Assembly: GCA_013426185.1 (NCBI GenBank)
Contig: CP058602.1
Span: 206,873 to 270,872, forward strand
Length of the DNA stretch: 64,000 nucleotides
Reading direction: 5' to 3'
DNA from: Candidatus Woesebacteria bacterium
GTDB taxonomy: Bacteria > Patescibacteriota > Microgenomatia > UBA8517
The translations under genes and the position numbers were made by a program. Shown piece after piece: positions 2,940-61,744 of this stretch (its first letter is position 1; each line of letters opens with the position of its first letter). Under the pieces are notes generated by a model. The model did not search any database. It was not told where the DNA came from and was given only the letters and a program-made list of their open reading frames with translations.

Positions 2940-4173
2940 TTAAATCATCTCCTTTCTCTTTTAAGAATACACCAGCTGCAAAACTTGACGCAGCAATTAT
3001 TAAGAGCAAAAACCTTACTCCCAGAAACTCAGTAAAAGCGCCGGAAAAAATTACAGGGAATATGCTGGCTGCTGTTACCAAAAACCAGAAATTACCAAAG
3101 ATGCGCCCTCGCAAACCCCCCGGCACAACTTCCTGCAAAAAGGTTTGCGCTGAGACTATTATCCCACTGAAAGATAAACCTAAAACCACAAGTAAAAGAG
3201 AGGAAACAACAACTTTCCAAAACCCGGCTACCCAAACAAATAAAAAAGAAAAAAGAAGAAAAGAAAGTCCCATCAAGACAAAAGATATCTCAACCACTTT
3301 CTTCTTTCTGACCTTTTTCTTCTTGAATAAAGAAGGAATCAAAAAAGCTCCAAGTGCAGCTCCAACTCCGGCAGGAACTATTATCATAACACCAGCCTTA
3401 TCGTAATGAACTGACAAAATCTCGCTTGCCACCAAGGGAATATTAACCACAATAATAGCAAGTCCTATTTGCATCACCAAAAGCAATAAAAATGGGAAAA
3501 GAACCTTATTATTAGCCTTGATGAAATCGTATCCTTCCTTAATCCTTACAAAGAAGTCAAAAATCAATTTATCAAAACTCCCGCCCTTCATCTTACCCAC
3601 TCTCATTTTGGGTAAGTAAGAAACACTCACAAAAGCAATAAAGAGGAACAAAGAGCATAAAATCAAAGAATTTCTAAAACCAAAGAATTGATTCAAGACA
3701 CCAGCAAATCCAAAACCAACAATTAATGAAAACTGCTGAGTCAAAAAGAAAAGCCCGTTGGCAAAAGGCAAACCACTTTTATTAACCAAAGACGGCAAAG
3801 ATGCAGCTTCGGAAGGAACGTAAAACTGATTCAAAAATGAATAAGCCAAAGCCACACCATAGAGCAAAAAAACTCTAAAATTAAATGTAAATGCATAAAC
3901 CAAAATAACTAAAAATTGTAAGAAATTAGTAATCATCAAAAGCCTTTTCCTATCTGCCATATCAACATAAGCTGAGGCAAAAGGACCAATCAAAATAGCA
4001 GGCAAAGAGTAAGCTACCCAAAGAAAAGAAGTAGCTATACTTGAATTGGTAAGAGAAAAAAGGCGAGTCAAAAGCAAAAAATTCATCACATTGATAGCCA
4101 GTTGAGACAAAATTTGCGAAGTCCACAAATAAACAAAATTCCTGTTACTAACTAAAAACTTATACTCTTTCAT
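2929..4173 (-). CDS. MFS-type transporter (12 predicted TM helices)
   Basis: 414-aa, highly hydrophobic polytopic protein with MFS-like topology. Its start overlaps the gatA stop (ATGA) and its end overlaps the gatB start. Confidence 0.6.
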
Positions 4174-5582
4174 ATTATTTTCGCAACCTGCGGTTTGTAA
4201 TCTATAAATCGGTGATATTCAAGAGCACTAGCAAACAAAAGTTCTTCTGAAAATTTTGGCCCCATTATCTGAAAACCGAAAGGAAGATTGTCTTTATTAA
4301 AACCAGAAGGCACAGCTAGAGAAGGAATGCCACATAAATTAGCAGTCGCAGCATAAATATCGGTTAAGTACATTTTTAGAGGATCGTTGACTTTTTCCCC
4401 AAGTTTGAAAGGCAAACTAGGAGCAACAGGAGCAAGAATTAGATCTACATCTTCAAAAGCTCTATCCACCTCTTCTATTATCACAGATCTAACTTTCATG
4501 GCTTTAAGATAATAAGCATCATAATATCCAGCCGAAAGAACATAAGAACCAAGCATTATTCTTCTTTTTGCCTCATCACCAAAGAAGCTTCTATCCTTGC
4601 CATAGCGAACACCATCATAACGCGAAAGATTTGACGAAACTTCGGCTGGCTGAATTATATAATAAACGGAAATTCCATACTTAGTATGAGGTAAAGAAAT
4701 CTCCATGATTTTGTTACCCATTTTTTCAAAAGTCTTCGCAGCCTCAAGAACACCATCTCTCACATCATCTTCAAGTCCTTCTCCCAAAAATTCTTTTGGC
4801 AAGCCTATTTTAAGACCTTTGCTTTTAGGTTGATAAGGCTTATGAAGAGAACTTAGAGTTGAATCATGGCCATCTATTCCCCGAGTAACCTCAAAGACTT
4901 TCCTAACATCACTAACAACACGCCCAAAATGGCCAATACTGTCAAGAGACGAGGCCATAGCAATAATTCCAAACCTTGAAACCGAACCATAAGTCGGTTT
5001 TAAACCTAAAACTCCACAATAATTTGCAGGCAACCTAATAGAACCGCAAGTATCAGTCCCTGTTGAAATTAAGGAAAAATCGGCCGCTAAGCTTGCTGCT
5101 GATCCGCTTGAAGATCCACCGGGGACCAATTTTTTGTTCCATGGGTTTTTAGTTGGCCCAAAATCTGAATTTTCCCCAGATGAACCATGAGCCCAAGCGT
5201 CTTGGTTAGCCTTGCCAAGAGTAATACATCCTGCTTTCTCAAGCCTTTCAACCACAGTTGCCGAGTAGGCAGGAACATAATCTTCAAGCACATGAGAAGC
5301 TGCAGTAGTTCTTATTCCCTTTGTTAAAAACATATCTTTATGAATCACCGTCACCCCAAGCAAAGGAAACTCTTCAAAAGCTTTATCTCCCAGTTCTTTA
5401 ATTAACTTGTCAGCTTTTCTGGCCTGACTGTAAGCCAACTCGCTTGAAACAGTAAGAACGGCATTTATTTCAGGATTAAATTTATCAATTCTCTCAAGGT
5501 AATAATCAACAAGATCAACACAACTTAGATCTTTTTTCTTCAAAGCCTCTTGAGTTTCTTGAATTGTCAAAGGTACTTTCAT
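4170..5582 (-). CDS. gatA: Glu-tRNA(Gln) amidotransferase subunit A (amidase signature family)
   Basis: 470 aa. Amidase signature GGSSSGSAASLAADFSLISTGTDTCGSIRLPANYCGVLGLKPTYG. Ends with a TGA stop. Confidence 0.9.
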   Translation of the reverse strand: MKVPLTIQETQEALKKKDLSCVDLVDYYLERIDKFNPEINAVLTVSSELAYSQARKADKLIKELGDKAFEEFPLLGVTVIHKDMFLTKGIRTTAASHVLEDYVPAYSATVVERLEKAGCITLGKANQDAWAHGSSGENSDFGPTKNPWNKKLVPGGSSSGSAASLAADFSLISTGTDTCGSIRLPANYCGVLGLKPTYGSVSRFGIIAMASSLDSIGHFGRVVSDVRKVFEVTRGIDGHDSTLSSLHKPYQPKSKGLKIGLPKEFLGEGLEDDVRDGVLEAAKTFEKMGNKIMEISLPHTKYGISVYYIIQPAEVSSNLSRYDGVRYGKDRSFFGDEAKRRIMLGSYVLSAGYYDAYYLKAMKVRSVIIEEVDRAFEDVDLILAPVAPSLPFKLGEKVNDPLKMYLTDIYAATANLCGIPSLAVPSGFNKDNLPFGFQIMGPKFSEELLFASALEYHRFIDYKPQVAKII

Positions 5583-10219: not shown

Positions 10220-10765
10220 TTGGACCTCAAAAAAACACTTAAAACATTAAAACTTAATGAATCAACCATCAGTACTATTCTTGGTGTTATTGTTATTATC
10301 TTTGCCGGCGTTTTAGTTTTCAATTACCTTAAAAAAGGTAAGCAAGGTTCAACAGTTCCTGCAACAAATACCCAGATTGAAGAAAAAGAGGAAAATCAAA
10401 ATAACAAGAAAACATACACTGTTAAAAAAGGACAATCATTATGGATGATTGCAGAGGAAGTTTATGGATCAGGTTATAACTGGGTGGATATTGCCAAGGA
10501 GAATAATATTAAAAACCCAAATCTCATCAAAGAGGGGCAAGAATTAAAAATCCCTGCAGTCGAGGCTAAGATAGCCAAAACAACAGACGAGGCAAAAGAA
10601 AAGATCACAGGCGGCACTTATACAGTAGTTAAAGGCGATAATCTTTGGGAAATAGCAGTCAGAGCTTATGGAGATGGTTATAAATGGGTTGAGATTGCAA
10701 AGGAAAACAAGCTTGCCAATCCAAACTTAATTCATGCCGGAAATGTTTTAAGACTGCCGCGCTAG
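10220..10765 (+). CDS. Membrane-anchored protein with two LysM peptidoglycan-binding domains
   Basis: An N-terminal TM helix is followed by two LysM repeats (YTVKKGQSLWMIAEEVYG...LIKEGQELKIP and YTVVKGDNLWEIAVRAYG...LIHAGNVLRLP). The apparent start is TTG with a strong SD, and there is no in-frame ATG nearby. Confidence 0.75.
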   Translation: MDLKKTLKTLKLNESTISTILGVIVIIFAGVLVFNYLKKGKQGSTVPATNTQIEEKEENQNNKKTYTVKKGQSLWMIAEEVYGSGYNWVDIAKENNIKNPNLIKEGQELKIPAVEAKIAKTTDEAKEKITGGTYTVVKGDNLWEIAVRAYGDGYKWVEIAKENKLANPNLIHAGNVLRLPR

Positions 10766-10808: not shown

Positions 10809-10883
10809 GCAGCGGTAGTTCAGTGGTAGAATGTCTCCTTCCCAAGGAGAAGGTCGCCGGTTCAAATCCGGTCCGCTGCTCCA
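10809..10883 (+). tRNA. tRNA-Gly (anticodon CCC), CCA encoded
   Basis: GCAGCGGTAGTTCAGTGGTAGAATGTCTCCTTCCCAAGGAGAAGGTCGCCGGTTCAAATCCGGTCCGCTGCTCCA. Anticodon stem TCTCC/GGAGA with loop TTCCCAA. The acceptor stem pairs perfectly. Confidence 0.85.
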
Positions 10884-10886
10884 AGT

Positions 10887-11078
10887 TTACTTTTCTTTCA
10901 ACTCTTTCTTCAAAAGCTTTAAAGTTTCTTTTTTAGTCTCCTCAAGGCTCATACCCCAAACTTTGGCCATATGGCGAAAGTCGTCTTCAGTCAAAGAGCC
11001 GCCGCCTTTTGAAACTTTGCCTTTACCCATATCATCCTCAGGCAAACCGCAGCCACAGTTATAACACATAGAAATCAC
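10887..11078 (-). CDS. Small Cys-rich hypothetical protein (63 aa, CxxCxC near N-terminus)
   Basis: The ORF fills the gap between tRNA-Gly and the next gene: MISMCYNCGCGLPEDD...TEDDFRHMAKVWGMSLEETKK. No recognisable family. Codon usage matches neighbouring genes. Confidence 0.35.
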   Translation of the reverse strand: MISMCYNCGCGLPEDDMGKGKVSKGGGSLTEDDFRHMAKVWGMSLEETKKETLKLLKKELKEK

Positions 11079-11107
11079 CTCCTTTACAATAATATATAAT
11101 AAGAAAG

Positions 11108-11827
11108 ATGAAAATTAAATTGTTAAAAAAGAAAAAGGAGGGTAAAGATATAAAATCCTTCATTTTTGAAAAACCTAAAGGTTTCAATTTTAAACCTGGT
11201 CAGTTTATCTATCTCACTCTACCCAAGCTTTTTTTTGACGATCAAAGAGGAAATACAAGGCACTTTACCATTGCTTCATCTCCAACAGAAGAACACCTAA
11301 TGATAACCACAAGAATAAGAAAAGAATCAGGTTATAAAAGAACACTTGATAAAATGCAAAAAGGAGATTTGATTAATTATCGCGGCCCCTTTGGAGATTT
11401 TATCCTTGGAAAAGAAAAAAAAGAAACACAAGTTTTTGTAGCAGGAGGAATTGGCATAACCCCCTTTAGAAGTATTATCAAATATCAGATTGACAAAGGC
11501 TATAAGACTCCGATGCATTTGATCTATTCTTGTTCAACCACCGAGGAGATTGCTTTTCGAAAAGAACTTGAATGTTGGGAAAAAGAAGGAAAAATAAAAC
11601 TTGATATCACCATTACTCACCCTGAAGAGTCAAAAGAAAAATGGAAAAAGTTAACAGGAAGGTTAGACCATAAAATTCTTAAAAAGCTAACCAAAAATTA
11701 TGATCTTAAAAAGACCAGTTTTTGGCTTTGCGGTCCTCCCCCTTTTGTCTCTGCAATAGAGATTGAAGTTGAAAAATTAGGAATTAAAGAAAGAAACATC
11801 ATTACAGAAAAGTTCTCAGGATACTAG
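11108..11827 (+). CDS. FAD/NAD(P)-binding oxidoreductase (ferredoxin-reductase-type FNR fold)
   Basis: RHFTIASSP (the RxYS FAD motif) and FVAGGIGITPF (the NAD(P) GxGxxP motif), in a 239-aa two-domain layout. Confidence 0.7.
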   Translation: MKIKLLKKKKEGKDIKSFIFEKPKGFNFKPGQFIYLTLPKLFFDDQRGNTRHFTIASSPTEEHLMITTRIRKESGYKRTLDKMQKGDLINYRGPFGDFILGKEKKETQVFVAGGIGITPFRSIIKYQIDKGYKTPMHLIYSCSTTEEIAFRKELECWEKEGKIKLDITITHPEESKEKWKKLTGRLDHKILKKLTKNYDLKKTSFWLCGPPPFVSAIEIEVEKLGIKERNIITEKFSGY

Positions 11828-11828
11828 G

Positions 11829-13247
11829 ATGATCAAAATTCCTCTTAAATTTATCCTCATTTTAAGTCTTATTCCTATCTTTTTTATCGCTTCGATTGAT
11901 AGCGACCTTGGCTGGCATCTAAGATACGGAGGTTACTTTCTTGAAAACGGCAAATTTCTCAAAGAAAATATACTCACATATTTTCTTTCAGGCTACTATT
12001 GGCCTAACTCATATTCTCTTTACCAAGCTATAACCACAATCCTTTACAAAATTGGCAATCTACAGCTTTTAACTCTTAGCTACCTTCTGGTTATGCTTTT
12101 TTCTTTCTATCTACTTAATCTAACCTACCCCAAAACCACAAAAACAAACTATCTTCTTTTTTTACTTGGGGCAATTGCCTCCTGGCAGGTTTTCAGATTA
12201 GGCCCAAGAGCTCAAATTTATAGCTTTTTATTCTTTGTACTTACCAACTTCTACCTTAGCAAGATGATCGAAAAAGAGAATAAAAAATATTTTTTGATAT
12301 TACCCCTTCTTTTTCTTGTTTGGGTCAATTTCCACGGAGGATTCGTAGTTGGGTTTGCTCTTTTTCTTTATTACATTATAAAAAGCATCACTGATAAAAA
12401 ATGGGGTACAGCAACTTCAATTAGTCTTGTTTTTCTTGCTTCGCTTTTTGCCACCTTGATAAATCCATACAGTATAAAAATATATGCTGAAATAATACGC
12501 CATATCACCACACCATTAAGGCTCCTAATTGCCGAGTGGACCCCTTCGCCATTTTATATCAAATTAACTATTCTGACGTCCTCTATCTACTCGATACTTG
12601 TTTTACTCTTATCCAAAGCAAGAAATAAAATACCAAATTCAATATTTTTGCTGGTATTTATGTTTTCTGCGATAGAAGCAAAAAGAAACGTCCCTTTCTG
12701 ATCTTTATTTTTAACAATTACGATCCTTGACAGTTTGCAAGATAAAATAAAGGCAATTGAAAAAAATAGCATTATGACAAAGTTTGTTTATATCACTTCG
12801 CTTGCCGTTTTTATCTTTCCTATTTTTACCTCGCTACCCAAAAATGTCTCAATAATTTACGATCAAGATAGTTTCTGCCGTCAGGGGCTTTTGCCTTACC
12901 CTTGCAAAGCAGTTGAATTCATCAAGAAAGAAAAAATAGATGGCAAAAATGTCTTTTCTTCCTATGAATGGGGAGGATTTCTTGAATGGCAGCTGCCAGA
13001 ATATAAGTTCTTTGTTGATGGTAGAATGCCTGCATGGGAAACTAAAAACAAAGAAAGGCCATACACCACTTATCTAAAAATAATTCAAGCGCAAGAAGGC
13101 TGGGATAAAAAACTTGAAGAACACAAGACCGATTGGCTTCTTCTGCCGGCAAACACTTTTCTTGATTTGTATCTTCAAGAACAAAACTCAAATTGGAAAG
13201 AAATTTATCGGGATAAAATATCGGCAATTTATATCAAAAAAGAATAG
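11829..13247 (+). pseudogene. GT-C-like polytopic membrane protein (~470 aa) interrupted by a single in-frame TGA at 12699-12701
   Basis: ORFs 11829-12701 and 12735-13247 are in the same frame (both start at a multiple of 3). The 33 nt between them (SLFLTITILDS) has no further stop. The first extracytoplasmic loop contains SIDSDLGWHLRYG, a DxD-like motif. The C-terminal soluble domain (FVDGRMPAW) is typical of GT-C glycosyltransferases. Confidence 0.5.
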
Positions 13248-13278
13248 ATGTATAATATTAATACCTTGGAAAATGATA

Positions 13279-13353
13279 GCCAGCGTAGCTCAACGGTAGA
13301 GCAATCCCTTCGTAAGGGAGAGGTTGGAAGTTCAAATCTTCCCGTTGGCTCCA
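13279..13353 (+). tRNA. tRNA-Thr (anticodon CGT), CCA encoded
   Basis: GCCAGCGTAGCTCAACGGTAGAGCAATCCCTTCGTAAGGGAGAGGTTGGAAGTTCAAATCTTCCCGTTGGCTCCA. Anticodon loop TTCGTAA, T-arm GGAAGTTCAAATCTTCC, acceptor stem with one G-U pair. Confidence 0.8.
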
Positions 13354-13400
13354 GTCAAGACAGAAAGGCGGAGGATAATCCAACAACTAATACAACAAAT

Positions 13401-14117
13401 ATGAACAATGTTTATTCGAGAAGAGCTATAGTTCAGGAACGAAAAAACATAAGAAAGGCGGCTCTTTATATCCTCTTAACTATTTTAGCCATAATTATCT
13501 TTATTTTCTTTGGAATTCCCCTTATTGCCAAAACAGCCTCATTTATCGGAGAATTAAGAAAAAGCAACGGGCCGATTGAAAAAACAGACACCACGCCTCC
13601 TGCTTCGCCAACAATTCAATCCCCTCCTGAATACACCAATCAACCTAAAATAGAAATAAAAGGATCAACAGAACCTGGAATTAGCATCATAGTTAATGCT
13701 AATTCAAAAAAGGAAGAAATAATTTCAACCAAAGAAGGCCTCTTTACTTACACTTTTGAACTTAACGAAGGTGAGAACAAAATCTCTTTTATTGCCAAAG
13801 ACAATGCAGGTAACGAAAGTCAGGAATCGAAAGTCTATACTATAATTTATGACAATAAACCGCCAAAAATAACTATAGACTCACCAAAAGATGGAGAATC
13901 TTTCTATGGCTCCAAACAAAGGCAAATTGTAATTCAGGGTAAAGTAGAAGATGCAGACACCTTAAAAATAAACGATCGAATTGTAATTATTGAAAACGAT
14001 GGCAGTTTTACCTACGCAGTTACTCTTCAGGAGGGCGATAACAATTTTGAAATCGTAGCAAGCGACAAAGCAGGCAATACCACAACCGAAAGGCTCACCG
14101 TCCAGTTTTGGCGTTAG
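13401..14117 (+). CDS. Membrane-anchored surface protein with two bacterial Ig-like repeats
   Basis: The true start is probably the ATG at 13401 (MNNVYSRR), because the ORF-track N-terminus is translated tRNA-Thr. A TM anchor is followed by two about 90-aa repeats ending ISFIAKDNAGNESQESKVYTIIYDNKPP and NNFEIVASDKAGNTTTERLTVQF. Confidence 0.6.
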   Translation: MNNVYSRRAIVQERKNIRKAALYILLTILAIIIFIFFGIPLIAKTASFIGELRKSNGPIEKTDTTPPASPTIQSPPEYTNQPKIEIKGSTEPGISIIVNANSKKEEIISTKEGLFTYTFELNEGENKISFIAKDNAGNESQESKVYTIIYDNKPPKITIDSPKDGESFYGSKQRQIVIQGKVEDADTLKINDRIVIIENDGSFTYAVTLQEGDNNFEIVASDKAGNTTTERLTVQFWR

Positions 14118-15294
14118 AAGAAAACTCCAAAGCAAAAATAACTGCCAAGAAAGCCAAGATCCAAGGATAAAAAAGACTGTTATCAAACTGGCTGTGGACT
14201 AAAAGAGAGATAAAAGAGGCTCTGGTGGCAAAACCCAATTGGGAATAGCCTATCTTCTTAAAAATCTCAAATCCTAAATAAAAGATAATCATAAAACCAA
14301 CAATACCTAAAGTAGAAAGAATCAGTAAAAAAGAGGAGCTTGAGCCGCTGCAGCTATGAGTCAAGATATTATCAACGCCAAGAAAATTTCTTCGAGCAAG
14401 ACAAAGATTATCAAATCCAACACCAAAAAGCGGCGAATAAGAAAAAATCTTCAAAGTTTCTTTATAATCATTGACTCTATCTGAAACACTGTAAAGCCTT
14501 TTTAAATTAACCCCCTCCCCTGCAGGCTTGGGCACAAAAGACAAAATTAAGATAAACAATATCAAAAAAATACCAATTTTCAACCATTTTTCTTTGAATA
14601 AAAAGGAGAGATAAAAAACAGAAACCAATAAAGAAAAATAACTTGCTCTTGAAAAAGTCAGGGAAACGCCAAGCAAAAAAAGAAAAGCTAAAAATATAAA
14701 TCTTTTATGGCTAGTAGACTTATACTTCACCCAAGACAAGATAAAACCAAAAACAAAAATAATACCAGTAAAACCAGGGTCTAAAAAGGCGCCTGTCATT
14801 CGAAAAAGATGATCATCCCACCCCAAAAATTTAAGAGAGGTCAAATCAGGATAAAGAAAATATTGAACAAGACCAAACAAAAGAGAAAAAAATAAGACTG
14901 AAAGGAGGCTACCAAACAAAACTGCAATCATCTTCTTGTTTTCCCTCAAAAAATCAAATAATAAAAGGCAAAAACCCAAATAAAAGACAACTCTCGCAAA
15001 ATATAAAAAGCCAATCAAAACTTCTCTAGTCTTAAATAAAAAGGCAGAATATATGAAAGAAAAAATAAAAGGTAAAAATAAAGTCCAAAGATTTCGATTT
15101 AAAAAGTAACCTTTTATCTTGCCCGAGAAAATAAGCAAGATGAAACCAATAAAGGCCAGGAAATCAAGAAGAATAAAGGAAACCCTAAAACCAAACAAGT
15201 TAAAATCAAAGGCCAAAAGACGCCCAAAGGGAAAGGCAACAAGAAAAGAGAAAACTAAAAACTCAACTATTTTTTGCTTTTTTGTAAGAGCCAT
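14095..15294 (-). CDS. Wzy/O-antigen-ligase-like polytopic membrane protein (putative glycan polymerase)
   Basis: 399 aa with 10 or more TM helices and a large extracytoplasmic loop near the C-terminal third (O-antigen ligase/Wzy_C architecture). It lies in a glycan locus. Confidence 0.5.
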   Translation of the reverse strand: MALTKKQKIVEFLVFSFLVAFPFGRLLAFDFNLFGFRVSFILLDFLAFIGFILLIFSGKIKGYFLNRNLWTLFLPFIFSFIYSAFLFKTREVLIGFLYFARVVFYLGFCLLLFDFLRENKKMIAVLFGSLLSVLFFSLLFGLVQYFLYPDLTSLKFLGWDDHLFRMTGAFLDPGFTGIIFVFGFILSWVKYKSTSHKRFIFLAFLFLLGVSLTFSRASYFSLLVSVFYLSFLFKEKWLKIGIFLILFILILSFVPKPAGEGVNLKRLYSVSDRVNDYKETLKIFSYSPLFGVGFDNLCLARRNFLGVDNILTHSCSGSSSSFLLILSTLGIVGFMIIFYLGFEIFKKIGYSQLGFATRASFISLLVHSQFDNSLFYPWILAFLAVIFALEFSSNAKTGR

Positions 15295-16019
15295 AATTTA
15301 CTCCAAGACAAAAACGAATGAAAACTCATCAAAAGAGAAAAAACCAAGCCATAATTGCCATCTAAAAATCCTAACTTGAAGATAAAATTATCTAGAAATT
15401 TAGATGGCGGACAAAAAATTATCTTAAACAAATTTGATTTTTTCCCTTCCTCTAAGTTGGAGACAGCATGAAGATCAGAGTAAAAATTAATCTTATCAAT
15501 AAAATCTTTAAGACTGAAAGAAGTGTAATGATCAAGATAGTTATTCAGAGTCCCAACCTTTCCTTCTACTTCCCAAAACTCATGAACCTTGCGTTTCCAA
15601 ATTCCAGAATTTTTCCTTGCCAAGCGTAAAACTTTATCATCTTTTGCCTGCCCGTATTTTATTTCCCTTCCCAAAAAAAATGTTCTTCTTTTCAAAAAAT
15701 AACCTGAGATTTTGTTCAAAGGATCGTTGATTTTGCTTACAATTTCAAGTTTAAGAGATTCGGAAACTATTTCATCTGAATCAACAAACAAAACCCAATT
15801 TCCATTTGCCTTTTCAAGACCAAAATTGCGCTGAGAAGAAAAATCCCCAGCCAGTTTTCTTTGAAAGACTAAAGCCCCGAGACTTCTTGCAACCTCAACT
15901 GTCTTGTCTTCCGAAAAATCGTCTACTAAGATAATCTCATCACAGAAAGCCAAGCTCTCAAGACACAGCTTGATATTTTTTTCCTCATTCTTTGACAAAA
16001 CGACAGCTGAAAGCATCAT
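15267..16019 (-). CDS. Glycosyltransferase family 2
   Basis: AVVLSKNEEKNIKLCLESL...IILVDDFSEDKT...LFVDSDEIV (GT-A DxD). Confidence 0.75.
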   Translation of the reverse strand: MMLSAVVLSKNEEKNIKLCLESLAFCDEIILVDDFSEDKTVEVARSLGALVFQRKLAGDFSSQRNFGLEKANGNWVLFVDSDEIVSESLKLEIVSKINDPLNKISGYFLKRRTFFLGREIKYGQAKDDKVLRLARKNSGIWKRKVHEFWEVEGKVGTLNNYLDHYTSFSLKDFIDKINFYSDLHAVSNLEEGKKSNLFKIIFCPPSKFLDNFIFKLGFLDGNYGLVFSLLMSFHSFLSWSKLWLLQKSKK

Positions 16020-16061
16020 TTAATAATTTTAAGACTTTATCACACTCCAAACAACCAAAAA

Positions 16062-16943
16062 CTAAAAAATCCTCCTAAGCAAAAGGAATACTATCAAAAT
16101 CAAAAGCAAAAATAAGAAATGCCATTTGGAAAATCTGGCAAAAACTTCAACCAAAAGTGCGGGAGCTAGACCAAAATGCTTTTTAAAATAATAGAATCTG
16201 CTTTTCTTAAAAATTTTCTTTATATAGGGAGGGTCTTTTTTGCCACCAGACCAAAAATGAACAACTTCTGACTCAGGAATAATATATAACTTATAACCCA
16301 GCTTCTTAATTCTTATCCCCAAATCGCTTTCCTCAAAAAAAAGAAAAATATTTTCATCAAAACCGCCAATCCTTTCAAAAACATCCTTTCTAATCAAAAA
16401 GGCAGAACCAGGGACAACATCCACCTCTCTTTTTTGATTAAGAGGCAAATCTTTAAGCCAATAATCCCTTGATATTTTGTTATGAGGAAAAACTTTGTTC
16501 AGAAAAGAAAGAGCAACTATACCCCTAAGTGGAGTAAGTTCTCTTGACCCCAGCTGAGTAAAAATTTTACCCTTTTTATCAATCAAATTCGGAGCTACCA
16601 CTGTCACATCCTTATTTTTAACCAAAAAATCAACTAAAGTGTCTATAGAACCAGGTTTGATTAAAGTATCAGGATTTAAGATCATTAAAAAATCACCATT
16701 TGCAAGGGAGGCACCTAAGTTATTACCAGCTCCATAACCAATATTTCCCGGAGATTTTACATACTTTATCCGATTAAACTGCTTTTTTACCTCTTTTTCT
16801 ATCCTCTTTACCTCATTATTATCAACTACTATCACCTCAAAAGAAACTTTAGGCCTGTTTTCTTTAATTGATTTAAGACAACTAAAAAGTGCCTCTTTAT
16901 CTTTATAATAAACAATAATTATTGAGACTTTTACTTTTGACAT
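16062..16943 (-). CDS. Glycosyltransferase family 2
   Basis: KVSIIIVYYKDKEALFSCLKSI...VIVVDNN...DPDTL. GT2 fold. Confidence 0.75.
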   Translation of the reverse strand: MSKVKVSIIIVYYKDKEALFSCLKSIKENRPKVSFEVIVVDNNEVKRIEKEVKKQFNRIKYVKSPGNIGYGAGNNLGASLANGDFLMILNPDTLIKPGSIDTLVDFLVKNKDVTVVAPNLIDKKGKIFTQLGSRELTPLRGIVALSFLNKVFPHNKISRDYWLKDLPLNQKREVDVVPGSAFLIRKDVFERIGGFDENIFLFFEESDLGIRIKKLGYKLYIIPESEVVHFWSGGKKDPPYIKKIFKKSRFYYFKKHFGLAPALLVEVFARFSKWHFLFLLLILIVFLLLRRIF

Positions 16944-17689
16944 ATTGCTATAAAAAATTCAGCATTTTTAATATCTGAGGTAATAGGAAAATCGGAAGTT
17001 TTAAGCGATTCCTGAGTCGCGCGGCCAAAGAAAGCTCCCAATAATTTCCAAATCTTTTCTTTCAAAGGTTTTGGCAGCAGTTTTCTAATACCAAAACTAT
17101 CACCCTGCACCATTTTTTCTCTCGCTTTTTGTGACTTAAGAAAATCGTCGAAGGCACTCTTTGCCTTTTCGCTTTTTGACTGGCCCATTATTTCCACTCT
17201 CTTAAAATACTTCTTCAATAAAGAAGACAATTCATCATAACTATATTCCCTGATATGATAAGGGCTTCTTAATTTGCGGCCAACTCTTTTGGGCGTAGAC
17301 ATTATAAACTTGCCTTCTTTTTTTAGAACCCTCTTTACTTCAGAGAGCATTTTCCTATCATCTTCAATGTGTTCTAAAACTTCAAAAGAACAGACTGCGT
17401 CAAATTCATCATCTCCAAATGGCAAAAAGACAGCGTCGGCAAAAATAAAACTTGCACTACCTGAATAATGTTTCTTGGCATAAGATATTGCCTCTTTATC
17501 AGAGTCAACAGCAAAAACTTCAAAACTTTTTGAAAGCAAGTTGCTGCCATAACCTGTACCGCAGCCAAGGTCCAAAACTTTAATTCCTTTCTTAAGATTC
17601 GCTCGAGCGAATTCATAGCGCGCAAGTGACTCCTGAAACTGAAAATTAGCAGTAACACCCGGTATCACTCTTTCATTAAAATCCATCAT
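16931..17689 (-). CDS. Class I SAM-dependent methyltransferase
   Basis: SAM motif I, VLDLGCGTGYGSNLL, plus an acidic motif II, VFAVDSD. Confidence 0.7.
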   Translation of the reverse strand: MMDFNERVIPGVTANFQFQESLARYEFARANLKKGIKVLDLGCGTGYGSNLLSKSFEVFAVDSDKEAISYAKKHYSGSASFIFADAVFLPFGDDEFDAVCSFEVLEHIEDDRKMLSEVKRVLKKEGKFIMSTPKRVGRKLRSPYHIREYSYDELSSLLKKYFKRVEIMGQSKSEKAKSAFDDFLKSQKAREKMVQGDSFGIRKLLPKPLKEKIWKLLGAFFGRATQESLKTSDFPITSDIKNAEFFIAICQK

Positions 17690-17693
17690 AAAA

Positions 17694-18944
17694 TCATTTT
17701 TCTTTAAAGACTTTAGCCAAATAATAAAAGACCAAAGGAAGAGAAACTAAAGTGCCAAAAAGAGCCGAAAAACCAGCTCCCACTATACCAAATTTAATTA
17801 CTAGAGGAACAATAGTTAAACCAAGGCCCAAAATGCCAACTAAAGTAACTATTGTAGAATACTCTTGTTTATCAACGCCCAGGTAAAGAGAATGAGCAGA
17901 ACTTGCAATAGACCTTACTATACCAAAAATAGATAGGACCTTAATTACAGGAACGGCAGAAAGCCATTTTTCCCCCAAAACTATTCTTACCAAAGGATCT
18001 GTAAAGAAAAATAAAATCAAGCCAAAAGGAACAACCAAAGCAGAAATTGTCAAGGTAACTTTATAAAAAGCCTTCTTTAACCTTTCTTTATCGTCTTTAA
18101 TCAAATTATAAACAGGAAAGGTCACCTTGTTAAAAACCTGACCGACCTCGTAAACAGGAAGAGAGGAAATTTTATAAGCAACTTGATAAATTCCCAAAGA
18201 TTGAGTTCCCATTATTCTCCCTACCACCCAATCATCACCCTGCTCAAAAAGATAGTTAAAGACACCAGCAAAAGTTAACCATTTGCCTCGCGAGATGATA
18301 TACCTAATTTTTTCCTTCTCAAACTTAAATCTTGGAGTAGGTTTCAAAAAATAGAAGGAAAGAAAAACCTCAAGAAGGGCACTACCGATAAGGCCAATAG
18401 CTAGACTCAAAACAGACTTTGTTAAGAAAGCAAAAAGAATAGCAAGCGTTGCATCAAAAGAAAAAACAGAAAACCTTAAAAGAAACTCTTTTTTAAAATC
18501 AAGTTCCTTTTGAAAACTAACTATCATTGGGTTGATAAACCCTCTTAAAAAAGGCACTAAACTCAAAAAGAGAATTACATTTAAAGAAGCAGGACTGCCA
18601 AAGAAAAGAGAAACAGGATAACTAACAAGAATCATAAGAAAAGAAATTAACATACCGCGAAAGATAGAAACAACCCAAGCGGTATCAAGATAATGGACCA
18701 ACTTTTTACGCGATTGGATTAAGACAATATTTACTCCTGTTTCTGTTATTACCTCAAGAAAAGCAAGTATCAAAGAACCAACACCGTAAATACCAAACTG
18801 GTCAGGAGTTAGAAGCCTTGCCAAAATGGCTATCCTTAAAAAAGCTATCGCACGCGTCGAAGCCCTGAGAAGACCCATCCAAGAAACTCCCTTCGCCGCA
18901 TTTTTAAAGTATCCCACAGACAGATTGTAACCTAAAAATGGCAA
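17694..18944 (-). CDS. Wzx-type oligosaccharide flippase (MOP/polysaccharide biosynthesis protein family)
   Basis: 416 aa with about 12 TM helices and the Polysacc_synt N-terminal pattern (LLRASTRAIAFLRIAILARLLTPDQFG). Confidence 0.65.
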   Translation of the reverse strand: MPFLGYNLSVGYFKNAAKGVSWMGLLRASTRAIAFLRIAILARLLTPDQFGIYGVGSLILAFLEVITETGVNIVLIQSRKKLVHYLDTAWVVSIFRGMLISFLMILVSYPVSLFFGSPASLNVILFLSLVPFLRGFINPMIVSFQKELDFKKEFLLRFSVFSFDATLAILFAFLTKSVLSLAIGLIGSALLEVFLSFYFLKPTPRFKFEKEKIRYIISRGKWLTFAGVFNYLFEQGDDWVVGRIMGTQSLGIYQVAYKISSLPVYEVGQVFNKVTFPVYNLIKDDKERLKKAFYKVTLTISALVVPFGLILFFFTDPLVRIVLGEKWLSAVPVIKVLSIFGIVRSIASSAHSLYLGVDKQEYSTIVTLVGILGLGLTIVPLVIKFGIVGAGFSALFGTLVSLPLVFYYLAKVFKEK

Positions 18945-18956
18945 ATATTAAAGAAA

Positions 18957-19922
18957 TTATCTTTCAAAAATTCCTTTCAGAAGACCAAGAATTACAGCAA
19001 AATCAGAAACAATCTGAACCAAAGGCAAATAAAGACGCTCTTTTTTCGTTTTTAAAACATCTCTCCACTTGTAAATCGGCCACAAAAGATAAAGCAAAAA
19101 CAAAAAAGGAACCCAAAAATAGAATCGTGTAAATCTTAAAAACTGAACCGATAAAAACAAAAATAAAATATAACGAGCAAAGACTAAAATTATTTTAATA
19201 TTGTGCGACATTAGGCCTTTGGATGGATGCCAGAAAATTTTGGATTTAATATCTCCACAGGCATAGCTTGAAACCTTGCCAAAGAATTCTTTAAGACTGA
19301 GCTTCCCCGGTTCTCCCCACACTACCCTAGCCTCTTTTGCCCTTGCAATTTTCACGCCAGATTTCACAGCTTTATAAAAAAACAAAGAATCCTCACCTGT
19401 TTTCTTTAAGCTTTCATCAAAACCCCTTAGCTTTTCCCAAACTTCTTTTCTAAAAGCGACACTTCTTGTTGAAGGCAAAAAAGAGATGGGGTCAAATCTT
19501 TCCTCAGGAACTCCAAGATAACAAGATATTACCTTTCCGAAAGGAGTTGGGGCTGGCATTTCATAAAAACCAGCAACTATTCCTATTTCTTTATGCCTCA
19601 AAAAATAGACAAGATTTTCAAGCCAATCACGATAAGGCTCGCAACCGGCATCAGTCAAGGCAACTATCTCATTTTTGGCCAGACTTATGGATAAATTTCT
19701 GCCCTGAGCAATGGTTGATTTCTCAACAACAAGCCTAATGCTCTTATCTTTCTTTTGAAAATGCCTGATTATTTCAGCTGTTTTATCAGTTGATCCTCCA
19801 TCAACAATAACTATCTCATCAGGCTTTTTAGTCTGCTCCAAAAGCCCCTCCAATACCCTCCCAATCGTCTTCTCCTCATTCAAAACCGTCAAACAAACAG
19901 AAACTTTCATATCAAAAATCAA
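18957..19922 (-). CDS. Glycosyltransferase family 2 with C-terminal TM helices
   Basis: KVSVCLTVLNEEKTIGRVLEGL...IVIVDGGSTDKT...TDAGCE. Confidence 0.7.
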   Translation of the reverse strand: MIFDMKVSVCLTVLNEEKTIGRVLEGLLEQTKKPDEIVIVDGGSTDKTAEIIRHFQKKDKSIRLVVEKSTIAQGRNLSISLAKNEIVALTDAGCEPYRDWLENLVYFLRHKEIGIVAGFYEMPAPTPFGKVISCYLGVPEERFDPISFLPSTRSVAFRKEVWEKLRGFDESLKKTGEDSLFFYKAVKSGVKIARAKEARVVWGEPGKLSLKEFFGKVSSYACGDIKSKIFWHPSKGLMSHNIKIILVFARYILFLFLSVQFLRFTRFYFWVPFLFLLYLLWPIYKWRDVLKTKKERLYLPLVQIVSDFAVILGLLKGIFER

Positions 19923-19958
19923 AACAATTAAAACATAAAATCTGTCAAAAATTTTCGA

Positions 19959-20987
19959 TCAAGTTTTCCACAGCGTTAAATAAGTATCAGCCAATTTATC
20001 CCACGTTTGTTTCTTGACCCACTTGTAGCCTGGTTCTATTTTCTTTTCAGCCTCATTTGGATTAAGAGTATAAAATTCTACATACCTTGCCAATTCGCTA
20101 GAACTATTACATACCACAATCGACTTATAAAAAGGCGTCATCTTAAGATAATCTTCTTTCAAAGGATCGTCAAACATAGCAAAGACCAACTTCTTGCAAG
20201 CTAGAGCTTCTAAAATAGAGAGATAACCTGAGACAAAAGCAAATCTTGATTTTTGGATAAAATGAAAAGGGTCCTCCACAGCACCTTTATAAACTAAATT
20301 TTTACTCTCCTTTATTTTACTTTTATACTTTCCGTCACCCAAAACCAGAAGTTTAAATCTAAGATTTTTCTTAAGCAAAATCTTAAAAGTATCTAGATAC
20401 TTCAAAAAACAACTTTGATCATCAAGTCGGCCTAAATAAACTGCGTCATAAATCATTTCCTCATTTGTAAATGGATAAAACTTTTTAAAATCTACTCCTC
20501 CATAAGTTACAAAACTCGGTCTGGTACCAAACCATTTTTCAATAAAAGATCCCACACAAATATTACCCCTAGTTAACTTCTCAGCCATCTTTTGATAAAA
20601 AATCGCTTTTCTGCTTAATGGAAAAGAAGGATAACCATGAAAGGTAATATACACAGGCTTGTTAGGAAATAAAAACCTAAACGGCAAGTACCAGATAAAC
20701 ACATCGTGTATATGAACAATTTCAGCTCTCTTAATTTCATCTAGATAATGAGAAAATAACTTAAACCAAATTAAAAGAAGCCCCACAAACTTAATCTTGG
20801 GATAATCAAATCTCAAAACCCTTACTTTACCCAGAAATTCATCATCTGAAAGATTTTCATTGTACTTTTCTGTGATTACAGTTACAAAAGCTCCCTTGTT
20901 GCACAAAACACTAGCTACACTAGATACGTGTCTCTCCACCCCCCCTATATGCGGATTGAAATACTTTGCAAACATCAAAACCCTCAT
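19959..20987 (-). CDS. Glycosyltransferase (GT-B fold, GT4-like)
   Basis: MRVLMFAKYFNPHIGGVERHV, an N-terminal GT4-type donor-binding pattern; 342 aa. Confidence 0.55.
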   Translation of the reverse strand: MRVLMFAKYFNPHIGGVERHVSSVASVLCNKGAFVTVITEKYNENLSDDEFLGKVRVLRFDYPKIKFVGLLLIWFKLFSHYLDEIKRAEIVHIHDVFIWYLPFRFLFPNKPVYITFHGYPSFPLSRKAIFYQKMAEKLTRGNICVGSFIEKWFGTRPSFVTYGGVDFKKFYPFTNEEMIYDAVYLGRLDDQSCFLKYLDTFKILLKKNLRFKLLVLGDGKYKSKIKESKNLVYKGAVEDPFHFIQKSRFAFVSGYLSILEALACKKLVFAMFDDPLKEDYLKMTPFYKSIVVCNSSSELARYVEFYTLNPNEAEKKIEPGYKWVKKQTWDKLADTYLTLWKT

Positions 20988-27432: not shown

Positions 27433-28482
27433 CTAACGTCTCCTTTTGGAGATTCCGTTTACGAGCCCCAAGGAAATCATAACCGAAATCAAGGAAGAGC
27501 CTCCAGATGAAAGGAGCGGTAAAGTAATTCCAGTCACAGGAACAAGGTTCATGTTCATACCAATATTAACAAGAACTTGAACCAAAAGAGTAAAGAAAAG
27601 ACCTGATAGAAAAGCTCTAACTGAATGCGACTTTGCTTCTAACATCAGTTTAGTTAGTCTCCAAAATAGAAAAAAATAAGCAATAAGAACAAACAAACTA
27701 CCCATAAATCCTAATTCCTCAGCAATTGCAGCGAAAACAAAATCAGTGTGTTTCTCAGGTAGGAACTGTAGTTGGGTTTGGACACCCTTACCCAATCCCC
27801 TGCCCAAAAATTGCCCTGCACCAACCGCCATCATAGATTGAATACTGTTGTAACCTGTACCAAAAGGATCAAGGGTGGGGTCCAGGAAAGTTTTAATCCT
27901 TTGCTTCTGATAAGGAGCAAGAAAGAGATAAAAAACGGGGATAATCAATGCAGAAAATAAAAGAGGTAAAAACAATTTCCTTCTGTCAATCGGCAAAAGC
28001 AAAAAAACTCCCAAAAAAGATACCGCTGTCAAAATAGAAACTCCTAGTGAAGGTTGAATTAAGATCAAAAATACAGGCAAAAAGAAAGATGCCAGAAAAA
28101 CAAAAAACCTTTTGGTCGTTAGCTTTTTGCTTGTCAGATAATCAGCCCAGAAAATAATCAAAAATGGTCTAACTATTTCTGCCGGCTGGATTGAAAAAGA
28201 ACCTAGAGGAATCCATCTGATAGAGCCTCTGGTAACTTCACCCACAAAAAGCACCAAAACCAACAAAAAAATAGAAAACCAATAAATATAGCGAGACAGA
28301 AAAGAGATAACTTCATAGTCCAACTTTGAAAAGACAATAAACAAAAGAATAGAAACTAAGATATAAAGATAATAGTTGGGAAACAGATAAGGTGAGATTG
28401 AATTTAGAATTAAAACACTAAGAGAAATAAGAAAAAATATGGGTATAACCAAAAAAAAATCAATCTTTTTTAAAGAGATCAT
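27433..28482 (-). CDS. rodA: SEDS-family peptidoglycan glycosyltransferase (RodA/FtsW-type)
   Basis: 349 aa, 10 TM helices; GLGKGVQTQLQFLPEKHTDFVFAAIAEELGFMGSLFVL and a C-terminal GITLPLLSSGGSSL. Confidence 0.75.
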   Translation of the reverse strand: MISLKKIDFFLVIPIFFLISLSVLILNSISPYLFPNYYLYILVSILLFIVFSKLDYEVISFLSRYIYWFSIFLLVLVLFVGEVTRGSIRWIPLGSFSIQPAEIVRPFLIIFWADYLTSKKLTTKRFFVFLASFFLPVFLILIQPSLGVSILTAVSFLGVFLLLPIDRRKLFLPLLFSALIIPVFYLFLAPYQKQRIKTFLDPTLDPFGTGYNSIQSMMAVGAGQFLGRGLGKGVQTQLQFLPEKHTDFVFAAIAEELGFMGSLFVLIAYFFLFWRLTKLMLEAKSHSVRAFLSGLFFTLLVQVLVNIGMNMNLVPVTGITLPLLSSGGSSLISVMISLGLVNGISKRRR

Positions 28483-61129: not shown

Positions 61130-61744
61130 TCAGGAGAGATATCTGTAAGTAGATTCTTCTAAAGTCTTTCTAACCTCATTCCAGTCAACATCAACCAAAA
61201 ATTCAGGATCGGGTTGTTTTTCTGCTTCTTCAAAATAAACAAGAGATTTTAAAATATGAGACATTTGATAATTTACTCCCTTAAACTTCTTCTCAAAAAG
61301 AGCTAAAAGCTCACCAAGACCGAACTTCTGCAAAATAAAATAAAGATCAATAAAATCTTTTTTGCTTCCTCTTGAGGATATTGCTGAAAGCTTCATACAA
61401 GCAATATCTTCAAGGGAGGCAACCTTAACTTGATCAAATTCAAGAAAATCACCAACCAAAGGATACTTATATTCTAAAAAGCTAACCTTAACATCATCGA
61501 TATATAAATCAAGTGTTCCTTTATCTTGATTAATAACCTTAGGATTAAGGGTTTTAAGTTTGGCCATTAGAATTTCAAACTTAGGAAAAGAAGAGGAAAA
61601 AAAATCAAGATCAATCGATTTTCTGTGCCCCAAAATCAAAGATAAAGCAGTGCCACCTGCAAGATAGAAGTTGTCTAAGACTTGAGTTTCTCTTATTTTT
61701 CTTAAAACCTGTCTTGTCTTTGAATCAATGGCTTTCTCAAACAT
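61130..61744 (-). CDS. Nucleotidyltransferase of the AbiEii/DUF1814 toxin family
   Basis: VLDNFYLAGGTALSLILGHRKSIDLDFF, the characteristic N-terminal NTase motif of AbiEii-type type IV TA toxins. Confidence 0.6.
   Translation of the reverse strand: MFEKAIDSKTRQVLRKIRETQVLDNFYLAGGTALSLILGHRKSIDLDFFSSSFPKFEILMAKLKTLNPKVINQDKGTLDLYIDDVKVSFLEYKYPLVGDFLEFDQVKVASLEDIACMKLSAISSRGSKKDFIDLYFILQKFGLGELLALFEKKFKGVNYQMSHILKSLVYFEEAEKQPDPEFLVDVDWNEVRKTLEESTYRYLS

Follow-up and report, generated by a model that had tools for sequence, protein, structure and literature searches.

The described proteins closest in fold to the one discussed here are GT-C membrane glycosyltransferases, among them STT3, AglB and PglB of family GT66, which have 13 helices and more than 700 residues, and DPY19, a C-mannosyltransferase, and ArnT, which use lipid-phosphate-sugar donors. 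In this report we focused on a 64,000-nucleotide stretch of the genome of a Candidatus Woesebacteria bacterium (GenBank contig CP058602.1, positions 206,873 to 270,872 of the forward strand; hereafter the window), in which a gene for a protein of this fold, at 11829-13247 on the + strand, is interrupted by one internal TGA. We conclude, with a probability of about 0.88, that it is a true pseudogene created by a single nonsense mutation in a 472-codon GT-C membrane glycosyltransferase. With 472 residues and about 11 helices, the ancestral protein is far more compact than the GT66 enzymes; it has no match to the Pfam STT3 model or to sequences in the PDB, and it does not carry WWDYG in literal form, to which its EWGG may correspond. 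It is only 9-10% identical to DPY19 and ArnT, again with no family-profile match.

The two products predicted from the interrupted gene, of 290 and 170 residues, are 100% identical to GenBank CH104c_0225 and CH104c_0226, respectively, which sit on an 818,817-bp contig of "Candidatus Woesebacteria bacterium". The organism, Ch104c, is represented by a closed 0.83-Mb genome of the candidate phyla radiation (CPR) from an aquifer in West Siberia that is tapped by a borehole 2.8 km deep (PMC7509429).

One gene with a premature stop codon

When the frames were re-read, they agreed with a first-pass annotation that had been made from the sequence alone. The open reading frame (ORF) at 11829-12701, of 290 codons, is closed by the TGA at 12699-12701, and the ORF at 12735-13247, of 170 codons with a TTG start, lies in the identical frame. 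The 33 nt between them (12702-12734) are stop-free, and the peptide read across the TGA is ...AKRNVPF*SLFLTITILDS..., the last part of which (VPF*SLFLTITILDS) had been singled out. The joined frame, which the first-pass annotation put at about 470 codons, has 472 codons followed by a TAG. The window also holds five other same-frame adjacent ORF pairs in which each ORF has at least 100 codons, and at least one of these pairs, gatC and gatA, clearly consists of two separate genes. Same-frame adjacency, which can arise by chance, was therefore dropped as evidence for one gene, and the single-gene case rests on homology.

The homology is extensive. A search with the merged sequence matched 292 database proteins, nearly all of 450-500 residues and covering 95-100% of the query. 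The closest, P0001, has 472 residues, is 95% identical in amino acid sequence and is colinear end to end; further close alleles (P0122, P0127, P0129 and P0134) are likewise intact and 472 residues long. When one genome per species was scanned, 333 species-representative genomes proved to encode a relative; among the best 80 species, in which frames were checked, 78 have an unbroken matched frame, so that there the orthologues are full-length single genes and not naturally two. In the other two of these 80 species the orthologue looks disrupted, by an internal TAA (L060:3001-4308) or a frameshift (L074:3001-4363), which hints at sporadic loss of this GT-C family.

The mutated base could be identified from two close relatives. 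The syntenic contig that carries P0001 (L001) is 97.5% identical to the window over 9.1 kb and 97% identical in the GT-C gene itself, and its codon 291 is TGG (Trp) where the window has TGA; a more distant locus (L014), with 91% nucleotide identity, also has TGG. On this comparison of alleles, which the first-pass annotation had proposed as a check, the lesion is one G>A transition, at 12701, which gives W291*. Across 52 distant homologues, the most frequent residues in column 291 are Phe (31), Tyr (9), Trp (3), Thr (3) and Val (3). An exact-pattern census of TGA and TGG alleles proved too stringent, matching one metagenome (L014, TGG) and no member of the GTDB genome set.

The reality of the stop was judged from assemblies. 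At least seven further assemblies share the identical TGA, among them ENA ERZ27245800 and ERZ511474 (L002 and L011), GCA_020725745.1 (L003), the Logan assemblies of SRR6825874 and SRR5011273 (L004 and L005) and JGI 3300025161 (L012). Over a common 6.9 kb, these carriers differ from the window by 0, 1, 10 or 23 single-nucleotide polymorphisms (SNPs), so that at least four haplotypes carry W291*, which shows that the stop is not an assembly error. The Ch104c assembly combined Illumina contigs with MinION scaffolding and Pilon polishing (PMC7509429), and long-read noise does yield false frameshifts in this gene elsewhere (L006-L008). However, the lesion is a substitution rather than a homopolymer indel, and it recurs in ENA, JGI, an NCBI metagenome-assembled genome and two Logan short-read assemblies. 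The probability that the organism truly has TGG and that the TGA is a sequencing, assembly or consensus error, an option that the first-pass annotation had left standing, is therefore negligible.

Within the gene, 12 nt distinguish the two W291* haplotypes, and every one of them falls in gene nucleotides 718-771, a 54-nt tract (12546-12599, + strand) that looks like a short recombination tract or a hypervariable helix. More generally, SNPs between near-identical strains are clustered, with 9 in 82 nt of a LysM protein gene (10490-10571) besides these 12 in 54 nt, and the remainder of the 6.9 kb is nearly free of them, which points to recombination over short tracts or to locally hypervariable segments of surface-protein genes. 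Separately, the last 62 nt of L004 (2966-3027) match the window at 28022-28083, on the opposite strand, with 100% identity, which probably reflects either a chimeric joining of unitigs or a short repeat common to both places.

A compact GT-C fold truncated in its tenth helix

Neither half of the gene, nor the intact orthologue, nor the family profile matches any Pfam or NCBIfam model, and a profile search against PDB sequences gave only noise, so the family was placed by fold alone. P0001 was modelled with AlphaFold2 from an alignment of 53 sequences, and the model is confident, with a pLDDT (predicted local distance difference test) score of 93.1 and a pTM (predicted template modelling) score of 0.91. 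Its significant Foldseek matches in the PDB are all GT-C proteins—STT3 (E 3e-7, TMq 0.64), AglB, DPY19, PglB, ArnT, ALG9 and Emb—with DPY19, STT3, AglB and ArnT the closest in fold. The model thus has a multi-pass membrane domain with the GT-C fold and a C-terminal globular domain of the oligosaccharyltransferase (OST) type, which bears out the earlier suggestion of a GT-C enzyme with a soluble C-terminal domain downstream of the stop. D24 and D26 are invariant in the 53 sequences and directly follow helix 6-18, the first transmembrane helix (TM1); in the model they are conserved acidic residues of the first extracytoplasmic loop, with a putative catalytic role. Other invariant residues are R127, Q129, W165-x-N167-x-H169, E236-W237, R286 and E380-W381-G382-G383 ("YEWGG"), and a near-invariant cysteine pair, C350/C359, suggests that the C-terminal domain is extracytoplasmic. 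The DxD, xIAE and EWGG motifs resemble the DxD, TIXE/SVSE and WWDYG motifs of OST enzymes and may be equivalent to them. The modelled enzyme is best described as OST-like, with a GT-C fold, but not classed as an OST, since it is a much smaller protein.

Placed on this model, W291 lies in predicted helix 285-302, and translation would end after residue 290, inside TM10. The 5' remnant (codons 1-290; 11829-12698, + strand) retains TM1-TM9 and the D24-x-D26 loop (codons at 11898-11906), together with W165-x-N167-x-H169, E236-W237 and R286. The 3' remnant (codons 292-472 and the TAG; 12702-13247, + strand) encodes what is left of TM10, followed by TM11 and the presumably extracytoplasmic alpha/beta domain at the C terminus (EWGG codons at 12966-12977), so that the protein loses its final two membrane helices and its entire outer domain. 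The G>A change at 12701 thus turned the Trp291 codon TGG into TGA, the shortened product, lacking two helices and the domain with EWGG, is most likely inactive, and both halves have since drifted without purifying selection. The mutation is old enough to be found in several haplotypes and datasets. CH104c_0225 and CH104c_0226 should accordingly be annotated as one flagged pseudogene and not as two hypothetical proteins.

The family itself, a compact OST-like GT-C without a Pfam or NCBIfam model, is widespread in the Microgenomates group, and no on-topic title emerged when the literature was searched for OST-like enzymes of Patescibacteria. It would make a suitable subject for studies of how CPR bacteria glycosylate their proteins or cell walls.

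Evolution after the stop and competing explanations

If the gene is decaying, its substitutions should bear the mark of relaxed selection. Scored with L001, L009, L013 and L014 as non-carriers, the private changes of the W291* lineage in this gene are 11 non-synonymous (N) and 3 synonymous (S), in addition to the stop, a ratio that is close to the neutral expectation. The flanking genes, compared between the window and L001, give 32N:74S, and the contrast is significant (Fisher p=0.0007); on the W291* lineage the individual neighbours give 7N:14S (FNR-like), 0N:6S (Ig-like protein) and 11N:25S (Wzy-like). The private changes lie on both sides of the stop—those in the 5' remnant are P22S, D35G, C142Y, A166V, I196T, M272I and L279F—and two strike conserved columns, P22S (Pro in 41/52) only two residues ahead of the invariant D24 and S410R where 50/52 have Ser. 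We did not count P240S (Pro in 51/52), found in the window haplotype only, as post-stop decay because it lies inside the 54-nt tract and was possibly imported by recombination, and Y432H was set aside because it is not private to the W291* lineage, being present also in one haplotype of the second null allele described below (Y33*). As far as substitution counts can tell, and small as the numbers are, purifying selection has been relaxed after the lesion, and it can be argued from the near-neutral pattern that neither read-through nor restart sustains a selectable function.

Some considerations nevertheless weigh against a plain pseudogene. When the L014 branch (41N:47S) serves as the gene's own background, the non-synonymous excess is weaker (p=0.04), the counts behind it (11:3) are small, and the divergence of the gene is partly clustered in a recombination-like manner, which blurs any branch-wise ratio of non-synonymous to synonymous substitution rates (dN/dS). 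UGA is the leakiest stop codon, and its near-cognate read-through usually inserts Trp; a leak would thus restore the exact ancestral residue, and low-level function is conceivable. A candidate restart at ATG 12774 could also yield a fragment with TM11 and the C-terminal domain.

These last two points are the starting places of two competing explanations, in which the stop either is read through or separates two working pieces. Programmed recoding of the UGA—as selenocysteine, by reassignment to Trp or Gly, or by regulated read-through to the full-length enzyme—would account for a frame that stays open for another 181 codons 3' of the UGA, the ancestral Trp is the very residue that near-cognate read-through would insert, and UGA is reassigned in some CPR lineages. 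However, the window (36% G+C) uses the standard code, and a UGA-reassigned code (table 4 or 25) does not fit it: TGA terminates 21 of the 57 long ORFs, including gatA (4170-5582; Amidase, E 4.6e-130; beside gatC), whose TGA overlaps the next ATG, as the first-pass annotation had observed. No hairpin follows the UGA, since the minimum free energy of 12690-12780, -7.5 kcal/mol, is weaker than that of shuffled sequences (z +0.82), in line with the earlier impression by eye that no SECIS-like element is present, and 11500-13500 has no Rfam match besides tRNA. The five commonest residues in column 291 of the 52 homologues include Phe, Tyr and Trp but not Cys; the nearest relatives have TGG; both halves evolve nearly neutrally on the W291* lineage; and the U at position +4 makes for strong termination in E. 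coli. We therefore regard recoding as highly improbable, and the selenocysteine or programmed read-through option of the first-pass annotation finds no support here. A functional split enzyme, in which the 290-residue membrane fragment assembles with a re-initiated fragment of 157-170 residues, is also very unlikely. Two candidate restarts exist within 12735-12776 (+ strand), the TTG at 12735 used by GenBank (170 residues) and the ATG at 12774 used by other callers (157 residues). The latter begins exactly at the last membrane helix and would give an anchored outer domain, the sequence upstream is A-rich, and the downstream frame remains open. That neither start has a Shine-Dalgarno match is uninformative, because such sites are rare in this genome: a strong one precedes 3 of the 45 long genes in the window (for example at 61744, 7499 and 5582), the median anti-Shine-Dalgarno duplex energy at the 45 gene starts is -2.2 kcal/mol against a background of -1.5, and initiation in Ch104c seems to be largely independent of it. 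Against the split stand the expected loss of TM10 (residues 291-315), the single genes in 78 of the best 80 species, and the private changes at conserved positions in both fragments (P22S and S410R) with their 11:3 ratio. An open stretch of 181 codons at about 1% divergence is, moreover, what chance predicts for a young pseudogene.

The remaining explanation is a reversible, high-frequency on/off switch of a surface-glycosylation enzyme. The gene adjoins a Wzx/Wzy-type glycan cluster and the gene of an Ig-like surface protein, and the population holds intact, W291* and Y33* alleles, hence "on" and "off" forms that include two independent "off" mutations. On the other side, the change is a point substitution, and no repeat tract, homopolymer of at least 8 nt or invertible element is found at the stop site; TRF found no tandem repeat in the gene, the longest homopolymer of which has 7 nt and lies away from the stop. 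No on and off alleles that share an otherwise identical background were found, the W291* lineage being set apart from each intact allele by 14 or more further fixed changes in the gene, and W291* persists on at least four haplotypes, hence is stable and not flickering. Phase variation, which the first-pass annotation had thought plausible, is accordingly most improbable as a switching mechanism, the allele being fixed on its own lineage, although the looser idea of an off allele in a polymorphic population holds. Of the origins proposed in that annotation—a recent nonsense mutation, an error, or programmed read-through—only the nonsense mutation survives.

The nonsense pseudogene has a counterpart. 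A second lineage of the same 90%-identity protein cluster, with a gene about 96.5% identical in nucleotide sequence to that of the window, carries Y33* (TAC>TAA; codon 33 corresponds to 11925-11927) and has W291 intact. Its loci, orthologous to 11829-13247, are L009:2737-4155 (on a 352.7-kb contig), L010:1007-2425 and L013:2737-4155; these assemblies are otherwise clean and represent two Y33* haplotypes, 6 nt apart. L009 is JGI 3300045950, from groundwater of wells in Oman (PMC9586279). By these alleles, the gene was inactivated at least twice independently, in lineages from separate datasets and with all neighbouring genes intact. The two independent losses imply either that the enzyme is dispensable in this species or that its loss is sometimes favoured, and knock-outs in near-identical subsurface populations mark it as conditionally dispensable. 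Loss is common for cell-surface glycan genes. It is possible, though we consider it rather unlikely, that loss of this CPR-specific, OST-like mini GT-C is positively selected and recurrent in subsurface Woesebacteria, where the enzyme might decorate a surface structure recognised by hosts or phages, such as the Ig-like protein or the Wzx/Wzy product, or else that W291* keeps a trickle of wild-type protein through read-through with Trp. A frameshift (T6>T5) at about codon 91 in L006-L008 (SRR17454618-20) looked like a third allele but was rejected as most likely long-read homopolymer noise, homopolymer deletions (A8>A7, C5>C4, T8>T7) being found in the neighbouring genes too. Over the region of about 10830-15120, these three assemblies show single-base deletions at window positions 11229, 11415, 11738, 12097 and 13620, owing to which gene callers split their FNR-like, GT-C and Ig-like genes.

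The locus and its comparison with known systems

The pseudogene is preceded by a gene for an FNR-like FAD/NAD oxidoreductase (11108-11827, + strand) and followed by tRNA-Thr(CGT) (13279-13353, + strand) and a gene for a membrane-anchored protein with Ig-like domains (13248-14117, + strand). The 289-residue Ig-like ORF called by several pipelines from ATG 13248 traverses the tRNA-Thr gene, and the true start is probably ATG 13401 (238 residues), which is the JGI call in L009 and L012. Compared with L001:7420-8289, the Ig-like gene is 91.7% identical with indels, in a region that is about 97.5% identical, which makes it the most divergent gene of the locus and is consistent with a fast-evolving surface protein. 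Beyond it lies a Wzx/Wzy-type surface-polysaccharide cluster on the - strand (14095-20987), consisting of genes for a Wzy_C/O-antigen-ligase-like protein (14095-15294), two GT2 enzymes (15267-16019 and 16062-16943), a methyltransferase (16931-17689), a Wzx-type flippase (Polysacc_synt_3; 17694-18944), a third GT2 (18957-19922) and a GT4 (19959-20987). A role of the GT-C enzyme in surface glycosylation is thus plausible. On the other side, a small ORF rich in Cys (60-63 residues, MISMCYNCGCG...; 10887-11078, - strand) separates tRNA-Gly(CCC) from the FNR-like gene; it has no Pfam match and is conserved and called in every related locus.

Two known situations invite comparison with the interrupted gene. 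The contingency-locus glycosyltransferases of Campylobacter, Haemophilus and Neisseria are similar in that a surface-glycan enzyme has on and off alleles in the population. However, they switch by slipped-strand mispairing in homopolymer or repeat tracts, whereas here the alleles arose by point substitution, no repeat is present and the off state is stably inherited. The closer parallel is with the ordinary nonsense pseudogenes of bacteria, known from reduced or host-dependent genomes and from surface-polysaccharide loci, which share the single transition to a stop, the intact close orthologues, the rise of dN/dS towards 1 and the annotation as two adjacent hypothetical ORFs. The biological point is a modest one, namely that a decaying gene persists even in a very small CPR genome. 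What sets this case apart from the ordinary one is that it is found in a CPR genome of 0.82 Mb, in which one would expect little dispensable DNA, and that a sister lineage carries a second, independent nonsense allele of the gene, Y33*.
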